From a virus (Duplodnaviria > Caudoviricetes): a stretch of DNA of 64,000 bases. The translations under genes were made by a program, and so were the position numbers. Positions 3,213-37,137 of this stretch are shown piece after piece. The number at the start of each line of letters is the position of its first letter. Position 1 is the first letter of the stretch. The notes below the pieces were generated by a model. That model was not told where the DNA came from. It worked only from the letters and a program-made list of their open reading frames with translations, and did not search any database. Location of the stretch: IMG/VR virus record IMGVR_UViG_3300036762_000188. One strand, written 5' to 3'.

Positions 3213-3438
3213 GCCGCAAGGCCCACTACTTTTAGGTGAGCAGACTTAAATGACAGGGTTGGCATCCCGAGTCGCCCGGTAGCTTAGACCCTCGCGTTTT
3301 ACAGGACTAAAGATCCTTAAGGCCAGGTAGCGTTCCGGTGGAAATATTGCCAGGAAGACTACTCAATTTTAGAGATGAGATTAATAGAGGAATATGAGAC
3401 ACCTAGGTTGACCTAGGTGTCTCTTTAAGAGGAATAGC

Positions 3439-4455
3439 ATGATAACCACTAAGTTTACTGACGTTGGCAGTGAAATACGTCTACTGACGTATGAAGAGGA
3501 TAGACTGACTGATACCTTGCCTATGGGCATTTATTCTGTTAAGTACCTCGAGATGACGGGAGAGTACTATCTGTCAAAGACTACTATGGCAGCGCATTCT
3601 ACTAAGATATACGGTGACGTAGATGAAATGGTAGATACTATCTGTAGTAGATACTCTACAGGTGACTCCTCATGGGGTGTGCTACTGTCCGGAGCTAAAG
3701 GCTCAGGCAAGACTGCTATGGCTTCTAAAATATGCCTTAAAGCAGGCGTACCTGTAGTACTAGTTGAAGATGAGTTTGACTCATATGGATTGACCACTTT
3801 CATCTCTAAATTAGGACCGTGTGTGCTAGTTATAGATGAGATGGAGAAGAAATTCACCAATGATCAGGATGGGCTTCTAAGCCTTTTAGACGGGATGAAC
3901 TCATCTAAAAGGTTAGTAATATTCACTGTTAATAATATACACCTAGTCAGTGAAAACATAGTTGGACGCCCTGGCCGGATGCACTATCTCCGCGAGTTCG
4001 GTAAGGTAGACATCAGTATTATCCACGAGTATTGCACGACTAATGATGTACCAGGATCCTTGGTAGATGACATAATTCTGTGTCAGCAGAATAGCCTCGA
4101 GTTCAGTTTCGACTCTATGCGAGCTATAGTGCTGGAATATAAATTGACAGGTTCTACTGACTTTGATAAAATAACTAAATACTTGAATATCGAGAAGATA
4201 AAGCCCAAGGTATTCTACGACGTCCTTAACGTCACTCTATCATCTGGTGAGGTAGAGGTAGAGACCTCTAGATTGCGCCTTTATGGTAGCGGGAACTTCG
4301 ATGATCTAATACTCAAATCAGGAGCCGACCGTATATACCTGGGAGACCTCTCTCTTCAGAACATAGTCAGTGCCGCTGATGGTGTATACACGCTAGTCAC
4401 TCAGAGAAGAGAGGGTCTTATAACTATTAACTTGAAATTAAATTCTATGAAGTAA
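3439..4455 (+). CDS. AAA+ ATPase
   Basis: Walker A GAKGSGKT, Walker B LVIDEMEK, LLSLLDG, TVN, RPGR. Confidence 0.85.
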   Translation: MITTKFTDVGSEIRLLTYEEDRLTDTLPMGIYSVKYLEMTGEYYLSKTTMAAHSTKIYGDVDEMVDTICSRYSTGDSSWGVLLSGAKGSGKTAMASKICLKAGVPVVLVEDEFDSYGLTTFISKLGPCVLVIDEMEKKFTNDQDGLLSLLDGMNSSKRLVIFTVNNIHLVSENIVGRPGRMHYLREFGKVDISIIHEYCTTNDVPGSLVDDIILCQQNSLEFSFDSMRAIVLEYKLTGSTDFDKITKYLNIEKIKPKVFYDVLNVTLSSGEVEVETSRLRLYGSGNFDDLILKSGADRIYLGDLSLQNIVSAADGVYTLVTQRREGLITINLKLNSMK

Positions 4456-4578: not shown

Positions 4579-5106
4579 ATGGAACGTGTAAATACTGATT
4601 ACTCGAACTTAACCTTGGAAGAAGGTAAGGCTCTGTGGTTAGAGAAGAAAGGTATAGTCCACACTTTAGTGGCTTACCACCCCGTGGCGCGAGGCCATAT
4701 CATTGAAGGCCCTTACTGGGGCGCTAAATGGGTGGCGACCAACGGTGTTGGTAACCAGGGTAAACTCATTATCACGCCTCGATGTAAAGAGGCACGAGAC
4801 TTCGTCCGTGGTGAGGTAGTTAAGGGGCTACAGGAGAAGTATAGTATTGACGAGGCGCTGGCTCTTAGAGTATATCGCGCGCCTATAGAGTTTCGATATG
4901 AAATTCTAGACACCGTCATGATTATGCTGGAGGATAAAGCGGCCGTAGAGGCTGCAGGGCACTTCCCGGGAATAGGCCCTAGAAGCCATATACCCTGGCT
5001 TGAACGCTGGGGTAATGTAGTCGAAGACTACTTAGTGTACTCCTGGCCGCGTAACCAGGCCGTGCTTGACGCAGTTAAGCATATAGGTTGTGACAGCCTC
5101 GGTTAA
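4579..5106 (+). CDS. Hypothetical protein
   Basis: 175-aa ORF with GGGG RBS between tRNAs. Confidence 0.6.
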   Translation: MERVNTDYSNLTLEEGKALWLEKKGIVHTLVAYHPVARGHIIEGPYWGAKWVATNGVGNQGKLIITPRCKEARDFVRGEVVKGLQEKYSIDEALALRVYRAPIEFRYEILDTVMIMLEDKAAVEAAGHFPGIGPRSHIPWLERWGNVVEDYLVYSWPRNQAVLDAVKHIGCDSLG

Positions 5107-5623: not shown

Positions 5624-5862
5624 AGTGTTATTACTGCTCAAAGGAATTCCCTCTGGAGGAAGTTCGTCCGTACGGTCTGGGTGGCTCCTATATATGCTAT
5701 CCATGTATGGTATCAGACACTCTCAGAGAGAAACTGGCTATTGAAGAGGTTACTAAACTCTTAAGTAAAATTAAGATTCCTGTAGTAACTAGCACGGGTA
5801 TAAAAGACCTTAGTGAGCTTGAAGATCAGGATGTATTACCGATCCTCTTTACTAAGGTTTAA
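5620..5862 (+). CDS. Small Zn-ribbon protein
   Basis: CYYC...RPYG..G..ICYPC; GGAGG RBS before the ATG at 5620. Confidence 0.6.
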   Translation: MKCYYCSKEFPLEEVRPYGLGGSYICYPCMVSDTLREKLAIEEVTKLLSKIKIPVVTSTGIKDLSELEDQDVLPILFTKV

Positions 5863-5865
5863 AGA

Positions 5866-6180
5866 ATTGCTGTAATCCCTTGAAGGATTAACTATGGCGG
5901 ACGCGGGTTCGAATCCCGCCAGCTCCACCAAATACGTCTTAGTGGTTTACCCCCAATGGCTGCTAGGGCGTATTTGATGGGGCTGTAATGGTTTCGACGT
6001 TGTAGTGAGGCTAGAGAGGCAGCACGAGAGGTGACCTAGCGTATATAGGCACAAACTATCTAAATGCAGATGCATATGAGATGAAAGCAGCAGCTTAAAC
6101 TGCGCTTTCCCAGGACGGCGGTCGCCTACGGGCCCTGGTCATCAAAGACCGCCCTCGAATTCGAATAGTGTTGCGACTAT
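5866..6180 (+). ncRNA. ssrA: Circularly permuted (two-piece) tmRNA, tag ADAYEMKAAA
   Basis: 3' acceptor piece GGACGCGGGTTCGAATCCCGCCAGCTCCACCA ends at 5930; intervening hairpin; 5' piece GGGGCTGTAATGGTTTCGAC starts at 5979; G3.U70 Ala identity pair; tag ORF 6066-6098 ends in AAA-stop. Outer ends are approximate. Confidence 0.9.
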
Positions 6181-6184
6181 AGGC

Positions 6185-6200
6185 AGGGGCTACGGCCCCT
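6185..6200 (+). terminator. Hairpin after tmRNA
   Basis: AGGGGC-TACG-GCCCCT. Confidence 0.5.
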
Positions 6201-32669: not shown

Positions 32670-32912
32670 ATGCAAGAGTTAATTTTACTAAATGAACATG
32701 GTGAAGTTATATCGGAAGAAGATATAATCAAAGACAGGATTGTTAGTATGAGCGAGGCTATCCTAGCACGTTCTGACACCCTAATACGATTCTTTTCAAA
32801 ACGCTACGTAGAGGCGTGGGTGCACGGGAGCTCATTAATGATGTCTTACAAAGGGCGTGAATATGTAATGGTAGTAAGTGCAGACACTGCTAAGCCCTGG
32901 AGAATACCTTGA
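32670..32912 (+). CDS. Hypothetical protein
   Basis: AGGAGG RBS; promoter motif at 32639. Confidence 0.6.
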   Translation: MQELILLNEHGEVISEEDIIKDRIVSMSEAILARSDTLIRFFSKRYVEAWVHGSSLMMSYKGREYVMVVSADTAKPWRIP

Positions 32913-32946
32913 TGCATACGCCTAGACGGTCTATACCGTCTAGGCA
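32911..32946 (+). repeat. Duplicated 5' end of the RNA ligase 1 gene (left boundary of island)
   Basis: GATGCATAC...TAGACGGTCTATACCGTCT(A)GGCA matches 36108-36166 GATGCATAC...TAGACGGTCTATACCGTCT(G)GGCA. Confidence 0.75.
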
Positions 32947-32969
32947 CTAAAACTGGAGTACATACAGTA

Positions 32970-33557
32970 ATGGAAAAACCAATGACTAGACTGTTCGAAT
33001 GCTACGTTTATCGACCTATGCATATTGAGGCCGTTGAGATTATTGAGCGGTTAATTGCTAATGGTGCGAAGGTTTTTGACTCCATTTGTGGCATGGGGGT
33101 TGGTGGCAAAGAAGGCGTCTATGACAAGTACGATTGCTGGGGCTATCACTCAGGTTCCGGCACATACACATATGATGGGTATAGCCCCCTGGCCTCTAGC
33201 GCCAAACGGCTAACCATGCCAGAATTCCGCGCTGCTTTTCCTTGTGAGAAGTACGATGTACAAAATGACAAATGGTTGCCGGCTATAGGGGAGTGGTTTG
33301 AGGTATGGGTCGATACCGTCGGGTATTGGGCTAGAGCGCAGGCCAAGGCGCACATAGACGGTGGTGTACTGTGGCGTAACGGTTCGGACAGGTCTAGTTA
33401 CCAAGTGGCATTGCCTGATGAGGTACGTCCGCTTGAATCAGAGCGCGAGAAGTTTATTGAGGCTGCTATAGAGGCGGTTGGAGGTAGGCAGGCTGTTATA
33501 TCTGCGGATTCAGTATTCGGCAAACTCTACGACGCAGACTTTAAAGCACCGAAATGA
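32970..33557 (+). CDS. Hypothetical protein
   Basis: GGAG RBS; WLPAIGE..E and PLESEREKFIE..LYDA.F motifs seen in gammaproteobacterial phage proteins. Confidence 0.6.
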   Translation: MEKPMTRLFECYVYRPMHIEAVEIIERLIANGAKVFDSICGMGVGGKEGVYDKYDCWGYHSGSGTYTYDGYSPLASSAKRLTMPEFRAAFPCEKYDVQNDKWLPAIGEWFEVWVDTVGYWARAQAKAHIDGGVLWRNGSDRSSYQVALPDEVRPLESEREKFIEAAIEAVGGRQAVISADSVFGKLYDADFKAPK

Positions 33558-33591
33558 CTGATGAATTCGCGGGGCATTTTGGAGATAAGAA

Positions 33592-33792
33592 ATGAGGATT
33601 AGCAAAAAACAACTGGAACTCATCGTGCTACTAGAGCGCAGTGGAGGCATGTTCCGCAACGAACTGAATGAAGCGCAATACCCAAAGAGCCTTATAGATG
33701 CCATGATAGATAAGGGGTTGGTTGCTGAATTTAAAGGAAAACTCACAAGCTACACTGCCGACCACAAACTAAAGGCACGTAGCGTACAGTGA
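33592..33792 (+). CDS. Small winged-helix-like protein
   Basis: ISKKQLELI..L......LIDAMIDKGLV. Confidence 0.5.
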   Translation: MRISKKQLELIVLLERSGGMFRNELNEAQYPKSLIDAMIDKGLVAEFKGKLTSYTADHKLKARSVQ

Positions 33793-33992
33793 ATAGGGAT
33801 ACTGCAATGAATTTTGAGATAAAACTAAGTAGCGAAACCGGCGAAAAAGAGTTATATTTATTCGATGAATTCCAAGCCTCGTGGGACGCTAAAGTTAGTG
33901 ATATGAAAATTATTCAGTACGCCATCGGTCGAGCTGTAGAAATTGGTAAGGAAACCAAGGCTAAAGAGGTACGGGAAGCGCTCGGGCTATAG
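33789..33992 (+). CDS. Hypothetical protein
   Basis: G...KAKEVREALGL C-terminal motif. Confidence 0.55.
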   Translation: MNRDTAMNFEIKLSSETGEKELYLFDEFQASWDAKVSDMKIIQYAIGRAVEIGKETKAKEVREALGL

Positions 33993-34031
33993 TCCCAAGC
34001 TAGCTGGTATGTACCGAAGGTCTCATGTGTA

Positions 34032-34337
34032 CAACTAGATTTAGGTGTAAGTTCTGGGAGGTAGGCTTAGAAGCAGCCATCCTTTAAAGAGTAGGGTCTT
34101 TGCTCCTTGTGACAAAATAGCAACTCGAAGTACTTGAATTAGAGTTGTGAAAGTTGAACTAACCTCTATCCACTGATCACGGTAAGTTAGTTAAACGAGT
34201 TGCGTGGAGGTATAGTACCAAAGAGCTAGTAAGAACCTGTGAAATGACATAGGCATAGCGTGAGCGGTAGAAGTCATACCCGCCTAGCCGCCCTTTTGGT
34301 GTAACAACACACCAGAGCTTACACCTAAATCTAGTTG
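34032..34337 (+). ncRNA. ncRNA containing a split mimic of 23S rRNA H43-H44 (L11-binding GTPase-associated centre)
   Basis: 26-bp terminal stem; GGAGGTAGGCTTAGAAGCAGCCATCCTTTAAAGAGT at 34057-34092 and GGTGTAACAACACACCAG at 34298-34315. Confidence 0.8.
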
Positions 34338-34339
34338 GA

Positions 34340-34387
34340 AACCACGTATTAAAAGGCAGCGCTGTCCGCTTTGAATTATTTATTGTT
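34340..34387 (+). repeat. attC-like site A
   Basis: AAC..ATTAAAAGGCAG-CG-CTGTCCGCTTTGAAT..TTGTT, an imperfect palindrome with bulged bases. Confidence 0.55.
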
Positions 34388-34406
34388 GCTCTTGAGGGTA
34401 AGGATT

Positions 34407-34577
34407 ATGAAATATACAGAATGTAAACACGGGAACAAAGGCGCGAATTGCTTAGAGTGCATAACTGAATTTGAAATTGAACTTAAAAATGTATTTAAGA
34501 AAGGAGAACAGGTAAATAAAGTAAAAAGGCAGGCAGTAGTCGAATCACAGTACCGCGCAAATAAACGGCGCTGGTGA
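34407..34577 (+). CDS. Cassette ORF, small Cys/His protein
   Basis: AGGA RBS; CKHG....NCLEC. Confidence 0.5.
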   Translation: MKYTECKHGNKGANCLECITEFEIELKNVFKKGEQVNKVKRQAVVESQYRANKRRW

Positions 34578-34906
34578 GCAACCCAGAGTTAGTTTGCAGA
34601 ACGAAGCGGGGTGTAGAAATGTCAGAATTGAACGACTTGTTATCTGTGATTGAGCCACAACCCCGAGGCATTAAATATATGCTTGGTGGTGAATCATGGA
34701 TGGATGAAAAAGACCAAAGCCCGATCAGACTTAATTGTGAAGAATGGGGCAATCTAGGGCCGATGGAACTAAACCCAGAGATAGAGCCTAATAAGGCCGG
34801 ACTTCGGGTCAAGTGTACGGAAACTATAGCACCAGAAAATGCCAGAGGTTTTACGGTAGTTGATGGTATTTATTATTGGACTAGATCAAGCGTGTGGGAT
34901 AGATAA
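34574..34906 (+). CDS. Cassette ORF, hypothetical
   Basis: Ends in TAA-C at an attC-like left arm; N-terminus SELNDLL is encoded by the attC right arm. Confidence 0.5.
   Translation: MSNPELVCRTKRGVEMSELNDLLSVIEPQPRGIKYMLGGESWMDEKDQSPIRLNCEEWGNLGPMELNPEIEPNKAGLRVKCTETIAPENARGFTVVDGIYYWTRSSVWDR
34579..34643 (+). repeat. attC-like site B (read through by the next ORF)
   Basis: CAAC-CCAGAG...GTCAGAATTGAACGACTT-GTTAT. Confidence 0.6.
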
Positions 34907-34963
34907 CCCTTGCCATAAACGGCGGGTGAAGTCATAATGGGATTATACACCAAGGAAGGTAGC

Positions 34964-35179
34964 ATGAATACGATTGATTTTTGTTTTTGGTTGCAAGGAT
35001 ATTTTGAAATTAGTGGTGATACTGAAATCACGAAAGAGCAGGTACAGGTCATCAAAGATCATTTGAGTCTTGTTTTTAAGCATGAGATTGACCCGTTGCG
35101 AGAGAAGCAGACTACTACACCTGCCAGCGTTTTAAATGCCGCGCATTCGCCGGTCAATGATATGCAGATTCGGTGCTAG
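34964..35179 (+). CDS. Cassette ORF, conserved phage protein
   Basis: FCFWLQGYFEI...QVQVIKDHL.LVF motif; AGG RBS. Confidence 0.65.
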   Translation: MNTIDFCFWLQGYFEISGDTEITKEQVQVIKDHLSLVFKHEIDPLREKQTTTPASVLNAAHSPVNDMQIRC

Positions 35180-35184
35180 ACGTA

Positions 35185-35233
35185 TAACCCAGAGCTTCGC
35201 CGAAGTGAGGTCTGAAACAGTGAACTGTTAGTT
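35185..35233 (+). repeat. attC-like site D
   Basis: TAAC-CCAGAGCTTCGC..GTGAGGTCTG..CAGTGAACT-GTTAGTT. Confidence 0.65.
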
Positions 35234-35252
35234 CTTATCAAAAGGGTGATTT

Positions 35253-35447
35253 ATGAAGAAAGGTAAGGGTGGTCGTTGTAATTTAACAGCGTGCCAAACA
35301 CCGGAGGAGCCGGCTGAATGGTATAATCATGGCAGCCGCGCTTATTACTGTGAAGGTTGCGCAAAGATGCTGAATGAAGACCCGTTTAATAAGCGCGATG
35401 CCCAGGAAATGTTTGGGCATCCTCTTTGCACAATAGAAGAAACGTAA
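35253..35447 (+). CDS. Cassette ORF, Zn-finger protein
   Basis: KG..GG.CN.TACQ..A.WYNH....YYC..CA..LN; stop TAA overlaps the attC TAAC. Confidence 0.7.
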   Translation: MKKGKGGRCNLTACQTPEEPAEWYNHGSRAYYCEGCAKMLNEDPFNKRDAQEMFGHPLCTIEET

Positions 35448-35498
35448 CCCAGGTTTGCTGTGAGCCACGGCGATTATCTAACCAGTGAATTGTTAGTT
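35445..35498 (+). repeat. attC-like site E
   Basis: TAAC-CCAGG...CAGTGAATT-GTTAGTT. Confidence 0.65.
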
Positions 35499-35517
35499 CA
35501 CGAAATGAGGATTAGTT

Positions 35518-35721
35518 ATGAATAGAATAGTAATTGACGCGGATGTTGTATGGCCTATTTCAATCGGTATGGTTCTCATAGTGCTGATAATTAATGTGAC
35601 AAGTTGTTCTGAGAAATTTAATCAACTAAAGCACGATGAAACGGTACTATACCTTAATAAAGGGTGTGAGCGAACTATTGTTGCCGGTGGTCCAGGTACA
35701 CATTGGATCTGTACCAAGTGA
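35518..35721 (+). CDS. Cassette ORF, small membrane protein
   Basis: One TM helix; GAGG RBS. Confidence 0.6.
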   Translation: MNRIVIDADVVWPISIGMVLIVLIINVTSCSEKFNQLKHDETVLYLNKGCERTIVAGGPGTHWICTK

Positions 35722-35723
35722 AA

Positions 35724-35769
35724 TAACCCACAAACAGAGGCGAAGCCTGGCTTTATGCGCTTGTTAGTA
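35724..35769 (+). repeat. attC-like site F
   Basis: TAAC-CCAC..AGAGGC-GAA-GCCTGGCTTT..GCTT-GTTAGTA. Confidence 0.6.
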
Positions 35770-35788
35770 GCCTAACCGTAGAGATGAA

Positions 35789-36043
35789 ATGGAAAGAAAA
35801 GAATTCATTAAAAAGTATGGTGAGGTCGAGGTTACCTTCTCTCATTACTATAAATACACATTTACTTTTACTGGAGTCCTAGAAAATGGGAGTATTATAA
35901 GTGTGGATATTGGCGGTAACGCTGATGATATTTATCGCGAAGAGGTTAGTAATGATGAGAAACAAGTGATTTCACATTTAGAGCCGTATGCCGGGCGAGT
36001 TTATAATCAAGGCAAAGAAGTGCATAGTTTCTACGACTACTGA
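35789..36043 (+). CDS. Cassette ORF, conserved phage protein
   Basis: V.FSHYYKYTFTF.G...GG..DDIYR.EV. Confidence 0.65.
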   Translation: MERKEFIKKYGEVEVTFSHYYKYTFTFTGVLENGSIISVDIGGNADDIYREEVSNDEKQVISHLEPYAGRVYNQGKEVHSFYDY

Positions 36044-36088
36044 CAAAGAGCTTGCGTACCGCAGGTCACGCAGAATGAAGTGTTATTT
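36041..36088 (+). repeat. attC-like site G
   Basis: TGAC-AAAGAGCTTGCGT-ACC-GCA-GGTC-ACGCAG..GAAGT-GTTATTT. Confidence 0.55.
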
Positions 36089-36108
36089 CACGAACTGAGG
36101 ATATCTAG

Positions 36109-37137
36109 ATGCATACACTTAAACTTTTGAAGGAATCAGGCTTAGACGGTCTATACCGTCTGGGCATCAGGCCTGTTAAGAGAGACGGGCTTATACTCTT
36201 GAATTATAGTCAAGTGGAAAGTCCTAAGTTTCACCCCGTAGTAAATGAATGTCGTAGCCTACTCTTAACAGAGGACTTACAATTAGTAAGCCGCAGCTTC
36301 GACAGATTTTATAATCATAGTCAAGTAGACTCTTCAGAGGATATATCTGATTGTGATGTTTTTGAGAAGATGGATGGTTCTCTTCTGAATATGTACTACC
36401 ATAACGGATGGAAGTATAGATTAAGTGGATCCCTGGATCTTAACCATGGAGTATGGGATCCTACCGGTCTAGACAGTACTACATGGAAAGACTACGTCAA
36501 TAAATGTATGGCTGACGCGCCTCTGCATCTGGCTAATGATCGTGATTGCACTTATATATTTGAGATAGTCGGTAAGAGTAATAAGATAGTAGTGCAGTAC
36601 CCTGAAGCTGATTATAGGCTACTAGCTGTACGGCATAGAGACGGGCGTTATATGCCTATACCTGAGGGTTTTAAACGCCCGCGCAGTTATAAATTCAGTA
36701 CATTAACGGAATGTGTACAGGCTGCTAACTCATTACCTAACCTAGAAGAAGGCTTCGTTATATATAAAGACGGCCCGATTTTAAAGGTCAAAAGTGACGT
36801 CTATATAAAGAGTCATCATATGCGCTTCAATGATATAAGCGCTCGTAGGGTGATGGACATGGTTGTAGAAGGTGATTATGATGAGTACCTCTCGGTATTC
36901 GCAGAACATAAACCTATGTTCGAGCCTTTTATACAAGCTGTAGAGCGTATGAGGCTTGATATGATCAGGCTTAAAGCGGAGAGTGAAGGTTATACTACTC
37001 AGGAATTGAGTAGAATGTATTCTGGAGTAGAACTTTCCATGATATGGTGGGTTAGAAGTGATCGCTCTATATATGAGAATCTAAAAAGTTCAAAGCCTAA
37101 TGCGCGCATTCGTTTATTTAAACATTACATGGAGTAG
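36109..37137 (+). CDS. rnlA: RNA ligase 1 (T4 RnlA family)
   Basis: LNYSQ..ECRSL..SRSFDRFYN, FEKMDGS (motif I), TYIFE, NKIVV.Y, EEGFV, LKVKS. Confidence 0.88.
   Translation: MHTLKLLKESGLDGLYRLGIRPVKRDGLILLNYSQVESPKFHPVVNECRSLLLTEDLQLVSRSFDRFYNHSQVDSSEDISDCDVFEKMDGSLLNMYYHNGWKYRLSGSLDLNHGVWDPTGLDSTTWKDYVNKCMADAPLHLANDRDCTYIFEIVGKSNKIVVQYPEADYRLLAVRHRDGRYMPIPEGFKRPRSYKFSTLTECVQAANSLPNLEEGFVIYKDGPILKVKSDVYIKSHHMRFNDISARRVMDMVVEGDYDEYLSVFAEHKPMFEPFIQAVERMRLDMIRLKAESEGYTTQELSRMYSGVELSMIWWVRSDRSIYENLKSSKPNARIRLFKHYME

Follow-up and report, generated by a model that had tools for sequence, protein, structure and literature searches.

Putative decayed attC-type sites in inverted format between small accessory genes of a large phage genome

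The attC sites of integrons, together with clusters of attC sites lacking integron integrases (CALINs), have already been reported in lytic phages, including the lytic Pseudoalteromonas phage PH101 (H101). In a screen of 10,705 phage genomes with IntegronFinder 2 and with HattCI plus Infernal, integron fragments were described in Vibrio phages, and the PH101 sites attC1 and attC2 were found to recombine with attI1 through the integrase IntI1 at frequencies like those of attC_aadA7 (Qi et al., 2023; PMC9892861). The present analysis concerns positions 34,340 to 36,088 of the virus record IMGVR_UViG_3300036762_000188 (Duplodnaviria; Caudoviricetes), within a stretch of 64,000 nucleotides (nt) that was analysed as a whole and is called the window. 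Six short same-strand open reading frames (ORFs; 56, 95, 80, 64, 67 and 84 amino acids, aa) lie there between a structured non-coding RNA and the genes for RNA ligase 1 and polynucleotide kinase, and an initial annotation had read the spacers between them as an integron-like attC array. We consider it probable, though by no means certain, that these spacers are decayed integron-type attC sites, each bounding one small accessory gene and inverted with respect to bacterial cassettes.

The closest described relatives are the two published PH101 sites, which were located in the PH101 genome, have the same form as the element family analysed below and were included in its alignment. PH101 is likewise a large lytic marine phage without an integrase, and its attC sites, which are short, end in ATAAC...TTGTTAT, have a GAGCGTAGCGA-like centre and stand between small hypothetical genes. 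The window sites differ in being much more degenerate (7–21 bits with the covariance model R1, described below), in lying directly on stop codons and in having one ORF per unit, whereas the PH101 spacers are longer and probably contain extra reverse-strand ORFs; the recombination experiments concern the PH101 sites alone. The gaps beside the PH101 attC sites (3319–3600 and 4747–5000) hold a repeated block of about 90 nt and look as if they encode unannotated reverse-strand ORFs, with a minus-strand ribosome-binding site and ATG near 3513 and 4930.

The attC sites of sedentary chromosomal integrons of marine Gammaproteobacteria, represented here by the Vibrio anguillarum and Shewanella arrays carried on phages Va_90-11-286_p16 and M16-3, share with the phage elements the ATAAC/GTTAT cores of the R box, the same asymmetry of the unpaired spacer, whose bottom strand reads AAC-GC/CC ... 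TT-GTT, and one additional base in the 3' arm. They are, however, 75–130 nt long, lie 3' of their ORF with the top strand coding, and adjoin intI, attI and a cassette promoter, whereas the phage elements are 45–68 nt long, lie 5' of their ORF with the bottom strand coding, and have no intI. A third comparison is offered by the promoter early stem-loop elements (PeSLs) of T4-type phages (Arbiol et al., 2010, PMC2839356; Comeau et al., 2014, PMC4122927). These too are intergenic modules that recur beside small accessory ORFs, in a plastic part of a large lytic phage genome, and the gain, loss or exchange of individual genes has been linked to them. A PeSL consists of an early promoter plus a terminator-like stem-loop and recombines by homology; the window elements, in contrast, have attC cores, give no promoter signal and are of a kind detected by a model of real attC sites.

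The attC-type element family and its members in the window

Elements related to the window spacers were gathered from PH101 and from metagenomic phage contigs, four IMG/VR contigs being found through the spacer motif. In these four contigs and in contigs L054–L060, nearly every small ORF is followed by a well-formed element of 45–68 nt that starts (A)ATAAC(C/G)C, ends TTGTTAT and has a hairpin between. Across the 30 aligned elements AAC and TGTTAT are invariant, so that the attC core triplets AAC...GTT are present throughout, and the covariation of the stem exceeds that of all 500 shuffles and of every slid control. RNAalifold returned no consensus structure on the MAFFT alignment; the pairs were supplied by hand and then tested, and the inner pairs are poorly aligned. 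Most intact members fold in attC-like fashion, with a CC/TT spacer and extra bases on the 3' arm.

Two covariance models connect this family with real integrons. R1 was built from the 30 elements of other phages and holds no window sequence, whereas R2 draws solely on attC sites taken from real integrons with an intI gene. R1 finds seven matches in the Vibrio anguillarum array (best 31.3 bits), eleven in the integron and four in the CALIN of Shewanella M16-3 (best 27.0 bits), and two beside the truncated intI of a small chromosomal integron in an Oceanospirillaceae metagenome-assembled genome (MAG; best 39.1 bits); in all three, the matches fall at cassette boundaries, on the strand antisense to the cassette ORFs. 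Conversely, R2 finds the PH101 sites with 37–41 bits at E of about 1e-6 (R1: 37–42 bits). The metagenomic phage arrays score 15–38 bits with R2, invariably on the coding strand, and Tetrasphaera phage TJE1 has sites of 25 bits. Because R1 finds real attC sites and R2 finds the phage family, the latter is of attC type. The examined Vibrio and Shewanella attC sites read ATAAC/GTTAT and not the strict consensus boxes.

Within the window, all six sites and the half-site that the initial annotation had listed are present at the gene junctions where it had placed them (Table 1), and its account of their ends holds with one exception on each side: (T)AAC stands on or beside the stop codon in five of the six (TGAC in site 6), and GTTA(G/T), 45–65 nt further on, closes five of the six (TTGTTG in site 1). 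The core triplets AAC...GTT are accordingly kept in five, site 6 having GAC. The shared words to which it had pointed are real as well. TAACCCA occurs 14 times in the window, and three of these occurrences lie on three consecutive stop codons within 540 bp; an exact GTGAAYTGTTAGTT is found in the window only at 35220 and 35485; and TAACCCAG and CAGTGAAYTGTTAGTT, common to sites 3 and 4, are local to the array. Over the 27 nt that span the right end of site 6 and the ribosome-binding site next to it, there is 89% identity to the sequence that comes after site 4 (family D1). A genome-wide phage promoter motif was rejected as an account of these words, GTGAAYTGTTAGTT and TGTTAKTT not being enriched in the window; in IMG/VR the GTGAAYTGTTAGTT 15-mer gives only 51 single matches, about the chance expectation. 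A possible likeness of the sites to the RegA operator of T4 (AAUUGUUA), or to a palindrome of LexA type (AACAGTnnACTGTT), was dropped, since either would explain only one or two sites.

A search of the window and of the whole 149-kb genome with R1 gave only four matches at E<=10, namely sites 2, 3, 1 and 6, all on the plus strand and each at a gene junction. By our own arithmetic, assuming uniform placement, the chance of three further matches falling on the same strand within 1.75 kb of the first is about 2e-6. When R1 was scanned locally, its best matches fell at the remaining positions, i.e., site 4, site 5 (35722–35769) and the half-site at 34902. Three of the sites can moreover be traced to intact elements through flanking homology: site 3 corresponds to the type A sites of contigs L054 and L060, site 2 is homologous to L065:37–100, which scores 40.8 bits with R1, and the left arm of the half-site is a near-match to that of the intact L062:3722–3789. 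Type A copies in L054, L055 and L060 score 47–52 bits with R1 and 20–26 bits with R2. Site 1, which adjoins the 3' end of the neighbouring non-coding RNA, is similar in architecture to the type B elements of other phages; site 2 is the top R2 match of the window, and its 3' arm codes for the N-terminus of the 95-aa protein. The window sites thus belong by descent to the attC-type family and appear to be relics, that is, decayed copies of attC-type sites. The attC identity that had been claimed for them stands at the level of the family, through R1, R2 and PH101, and not at that of the individual copies, which are degenerate and mostly fail R2.

Table 1. Positions of the attC-type sites, cassette ORFs and adjoining features in the window
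Feature	Position	Strand	Description
Site 1	34340..34388	+	AAC...TTGTTG; degenerate attC-type, 5' of 56-aa ORF; R1 14.2 bits, genome rank 3
Cassette ORF, 56 aa	34407..34577	+	N-terminus Cys/His-rich; ORF list and gene call in relative L053
Site 2	34580..34645	+	CAACCC...CTTGTTAT; best-preserved site; R1 21.0 bits (E 0.014), R2 18.4 bits (E 0.1)
Cassette ORF, 95 aa (110 aa from GTG 34574)	34619..34906	+	Protein cluster and DNA comparison
Half-site	34902..34936	+	Left arm only (GATAACCCTTGCCATAAACGGC), right arm lost; R1 7.1 bits, local scan
Cassette ORF, 80 aa	34937..35179	+	PHROG 28500 (unknown function), E 1e-11
Site 3	35183..35233	+	Type A attC-type, TATAACCCAGAGC...CTGTTAGTT; R1 15.3 bits; goes with downstream 64-aa ORF
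Segment absent from relative L053	35202..35466	+	265 bp; BLAST and three-way alignment
Cassette ORF, 64 aa	35253..35447	+	Cys-rich; variable cassette; PHROG 13772
Site 4	35445..35498	+	Degenerate, GTAACCCAGG...TTGTTAGTT; R1 8.3 bits, local scan only
Cassette ORF, 67 aa	35518..35721	+	Hydrophobic N-terminal segment; ORF list
Site 5	35722..35769	+	Degenerate, AATAACCC...CTTGTTAGTA; R1 8.2 bits, local scan only
Cassette ORF, 84 aa	35789..36043	+	ORF list
Site 6	36039..36088	+	Left core mutated (TGAC), right end GTGTTATTT; R1 14.1 bits; upstream of RNA ligase gene
RNA ligase 1 gene	36109..37137	+	Anchor gene, not cassette; PF09511 recorded on homologues

Inverted orientation, shared cassettes and the weight of the evidence

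The orientation of the elements is what sets them apart from bacterial cassettes. In the window, in contigs L054–L065, in PH101 and in a prophage end of the Oceanospirillaceae MAG, matches fall on the coding strand; in the three real integrons and in TJE1 they lie antisense to the cassette ORFs. The asymmetry between strands is set by the unpaired spacer, the bottom strand reading AAC-(G/C)C ... TT-GTT; by our own reading of the primer table in PMC9892861, the bottom strand of aadA7 shows the same pattern. The cloned ‘forward’ strand of the PH101 sites of Qi et al. is the PH101 coding strand. The coding strand hence carries the attC bottom strand (5'-ATAAC-CC ... TT-GTTAT-3'), opposite to the arrangement in bacterial cassettes, and therefore the predicted cut, AA|C, would lie on the preceding stop codon and a cassette would comprise an attC site plus the ORF downstream of it. 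In the canonical arrangement, a single promoterless ORF precedes its attC, whose top strand is then the coding one; this is not what the window shows, and each unit holds one ORF. A few units of L055 and L065 carry reverse-strand ORFs, so the orientation rule is not absolute.

The units that recur between phages are consistent with this definition. The type A site upstream of the 64/65-aa gene is the same in the window, in L054/L055 and in L060, whereas the site downstream of that gene differs between the window, L054/L055 (which are homologous to each other here) and L060. In at least six pairwise comparisons, the blocks of homology start with ATAAC and end with TAAC, and one such shared block bears a 375-aa integrase gene; these block ends fit a crossover at AA|C. 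The integrase-bearing unit runs from ATAAC to TAAC and is 90% identical between two contigs, L200 (the Oceanospirillaceae MAG, contig C21:142.8–146.3 kb) and L063 (1652–3108), in which intact attC-type sites bracket genes for a lambda-type integrase (375 aa) and an N6/N4 DNA methylase; in L200 these genes sit in a prophage end beside a tRNA gene. At L055:376–400, at L060:5668–5690 and on the minus strand of L200 near 7570 and 7300, a short conserved hairpin, TTGCTCGGGAGGGCAA, stands between the right end of a site and the start codon. This hairpin may present the ribosome-binding site in its loop and may be a cassette-borne translation-start module shared among these phages.

Two of the cassette genes are found in other phages. 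Homologues of the 64-aa protein with 61–97% identity occur in unrelated contexts (L054–L059, including TARA contigs, and L060, a Mu-like phage contig with GemA, Mor and Mu gp36), and the gene together with its upstream spacer (window 35180–35450) is 81–88% identical in DNA to L054, L055 and L060, or 83–90% with different blast settings. The 95-aa protein shares a 90%-identity cluster with a 101-aa protein of a different phage context (L065–L067), to which window 34621–34907 is 78% identical in DNA, the block ending in GATAAC. A phage-side cassette pool, as had been proposed for this locus, thus appears to be real. The type A right arm has four exact matches in IMG/VR and none in 185,579 species genomes, a distribution that favours such a pool over a fresh capture from a host chromosome. 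A search of genomes with a type B 17-mer returned mostly random AT-rich matches and one true array, in the Oceanospirillaceae MAG.

A near-identical relative records one change in the array. Contig L053, a 3.8-kb Logan contig 97–98% identical to the window, lacks exactly the 64-aa gene; the missing 265 bp (35202–35466) have a 3-nt GCC microhomology at their ends, although longer identical runs were available. At the junction, site 3 contributes its 5' arm and site 4 its 3' arm, and the breakpoint lies inside both apical loops. We infer that the event was a pairing or replication slippage between the arms of similar neighbouring hairpins; alternatively, a circular unit may have inserted at an apex.

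Taken together, these observations suggest the following history. The mobile unit would consist of an attC site, a 5' untranslated region (UTR) with a ribosome-binding site, an ORF and its TAA, and the predicted integrase cut, TAA|C, would fall on the stop codon of the preceding gene. A host integron integrase may have put the array together by acting in trans on the hairpin in its folded state, as has been published for IntI1 and the PH101 sites. The sites would later have decayed in this lytic lineage, and an integrase would now use them poorly or not at all. The 64-aa cassette would have been lost or gained recently without integrase, through arm pairing or slippage of two hairpins that left an apex-to-apex junction. 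At present, the spacers may serve mainly as the 5' UTR and ribosome-binding site of each gene.

Several points weigh against this interpretation. The window copies score 7–21 bits with R1 where intact members reach 26–52 bits, which bears out the remark in the initial annotation that the sites are short and degenerate. Only one of the six, site 2, is reached by R2, and marginally so; R2, which served as a proxy for the attC covariance model, also gives a weak 145-nt match (12.5 bits, E 2) ending at the right end of site 5, and at E<=10 it did not find the other four sites. As an attC score, this proxy of real-integron sites does not support the window sites as a set. The members of R2 were moreover chosen as R1 matches and aligned to the R1 structure. 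The description of the sites as imperfect palindromes was too generous: the TAAC and GTTA cores can pair, and pairing is mostly confined to them, but the interior is unpaired, and the DNA minimum free energies of -3 to -6.7 kcal/mol (z 0 to -1.6) are no better than those of shuffles. An attC-like fold had been expected, in which an L box and a central spacer that stays unpaired go together with extrahelical bases in one of the arms; the window sites do not show it, and boxes such as TATAAC/GTTAGTT are complementary over only 4–5 nt, compared with the full RYYYAAC/GTTRRRY. Site 6 has lost its AAC core. The crossover had been placed at G^TT of the right end, with relatives expected to gain or lose genes there; the strand assignment moves the predicted cut to TAA|C at the left end, and the sole polymorphism in the lineage, that of L053, lies mid-site, at the hairpin apices, and at neither TAA|C nor G|TT. 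Block ends at stop codons would also be expected of any module made of a gene and its upstream region. That a host integrase ever acted on this phage is an inference. We conclude that the window holds a decayed relic array and not an active system. IntegronFinder defines a CALIN by two or more attC sites that pass its model, lie less than 4 kb from each other and have no integrase; the window agrees in spacing and in lacking an integrase, and by the proxies only site 2 comes near the threshold.

Alternative explanations

A wider version of the proposal is possible, but we put it forward only tentatively and would expect it to fail sooner than hold. It states that marine phages, lytic and temperate, keep their own pool of inverted-format cassettes (attC bottom strand, 5' UTR, ORF, TAA), including methylases and an integrase module, which they exchange through a borrowed host integron integrase cutting TAA|C at the preceding stop codon; the window would then be a fossil array.

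Among the rivals proper, the one that survives best, while remaining unlikely in our view, is that the spacers are PeSL-like regulatory modules, each a terminator or stabilising hairpin plus a promoter and translation-start region, that are shuffled by homologous recombination between spacers, their likeness to attC being convergent. It draws support from the conserved ribosome-binding-site stretch after the right end, seen as the 27-nt family D1 in the window and as GTTATTGCTCGGGAGGGCAA in several other phages, and from the L053 junction, which lies inside the element as homologous or illegitimate recombination would give; furthermore, PeSL-mediated shuffling and circles are documented for T4-type phages (PMC2839356; PMC4122927). 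Convergence, on the other hand, sits poorly with the detection of the family by a model made only of real attC sites, at E of about 1e-6 and in a strand-specific manner, and with the fact that the PH101 sites are IntI1 substrates (PMC9892861). Nor do the spacers contain the expected signals: sigma-70-like promoters are not enriched (8 found against 11.7 expected), no terminator lies on the coding strand of these spacers, the single minus-strand match (36053–36072) overlapping site 6, and a sigma-70 promoter with a terminator-like stem-loop is not repeated between the ORFs, nor does the motif recur elsewhere in the genome. The 3-nt microhomology used in L053, despite the longer identical runs at hand, also speaks against recombination by homology.

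Less probable still is a single illegitimate capture of a CALIN block from a host chromosome, with the ORFs being bacterial cassettes. The integron fragments of Vibrio phages (PMC9892861) lend it some plausibility, as does the setting of the array. The first ~60 nt of the RNA ligase gene, together with its ribosome-binding site, occur a second time 3.2 kb upstream (32896–32948 versus 36092–36170, with a 23-nt deletion). Since this duplicated 5' end flanks it, the stretch 32949–36108, with its three ORFs, non-coding RNA and cassette array, has the appearance of a single insertion at the beginning of the ligase gene. No such sites occur within 7 kb of the RNA ligase gene in two related cultured phages, Pseudoalteromonas J2-1 and Paraglaciecola GD virus 1, and the array thus seems to sit in a lineage-specific insertion. 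The copy of the ligase 5' end contains a near-perfect palindrome (TAGACGGTCTATACCGTCTA). A search with the RNA ligase gene brought up no phage at a moderate distance (the homologues that rank next do not exceed 43% identity), and synteny was assessed on near-identical short contigs only. What tells against a capture of bacterial cassettes is the orientation, opposite to that in the three real integrons examined, the match of two of the ORFs to phage-only PHROG families of unknown function (28500 and 13772), the recurrence of the 64-aa and 95-aa cassettes in other phage contigs, and the type A right arm, found exactly in no species genome as against four times in IMG/VR.

We regard as improbable a role at the RNA level, in which the hairpins are RNase III/E processing sites or stabilisers of mRNA 3' ends between early genes, as in T7, with no DNA recombination. 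The elements are indeed transcribed and intergenic, start at stop codons and form imperfect hairpins with internal loops. Yet the window hairpins are no more stable than shuffles, Rfam 15 gives nothing for the window region or for two intact arrays, and conservation falls not on a long stem suited to processing but on the CC/TT spacer, which is unpaired, and on AAC/GTT cores of the kind typical of attC; nor would this reading account for the cross-detection between the family and real attC sites. Chance matches of a short AAC...GTTA pattern in AT-balanced spacers, suggested by the weakness of each site alone (R1 E 0.014 to 0.85 genome-wide), are effectively refuted by the confinement of the only four R1 matches of the genome to gene junctions on one strand within 1.75 kb and by the homology of three sites to intact elements elsewhere.

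Genomic setting and implications

The window is held by a complete IMG/VR virus record of 148,929 bp with direct terminal repeats. As the initial annotation had surmised for the surroundings of the array, no integrase is at hand: neither TIGR02249 nor PF00589 has a match in the 149-kb genome, which is thus without an integron integrase or any tyrosine recombinase, and a complete integron, with an intI gene, an attI site and a cassette promoter adjoining the array, is not present in it. The cassette proteins match no Pfam family, and the 56-, 67- and 84-aa ORFs have no family of any kind above threshold.

The genome has many tRNA genes and a permuted tmRNA. In the window, 14 tRNA genes lie between 3140 and 23805, one of them with an odd two-base anticodon call, and the permuted (alpha-type) tmRNA gene at 5807–6189 has the tag peptide ADAYEMKAAA. 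Immediately before site 1, at 34027–34342, lies a non-coding element of about 316 nt closed by a 31-nt inverted repeat; its 5' part (34046–34095) matches DNA that carries no annotation in Pseudomonas phage pf16 and in Xanthomonas phage XacN1, with 90–97% identity. Rfam gave no match for this element, which we take to resemble the L11-binding (GTPase-associated) region of 23S rRNA.

Beyond the earlier description of attC sites in virulent phages, what the present comparison appears to add concerns the family as a whole: the inverted format, the TAA|C junctions, and cassettes common to lytic, Mu-like and lambda-like phages. We did not find the inverted format discussed by Qi et al. (2023; PMC9892861), who were the first to report attC sites from virulent phages. 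This format predicts that the coding strand is the recombinogenic one and that crossover occurs on the stop codon. If integron integrases do act on phage DNA, the plastic accessory regions of phages and the integrons of bacteria would share one recombination machinery, and small genes, candidate anti-defence genes among them, would have a direct route among unrelated phages and perhaps into their hosts.

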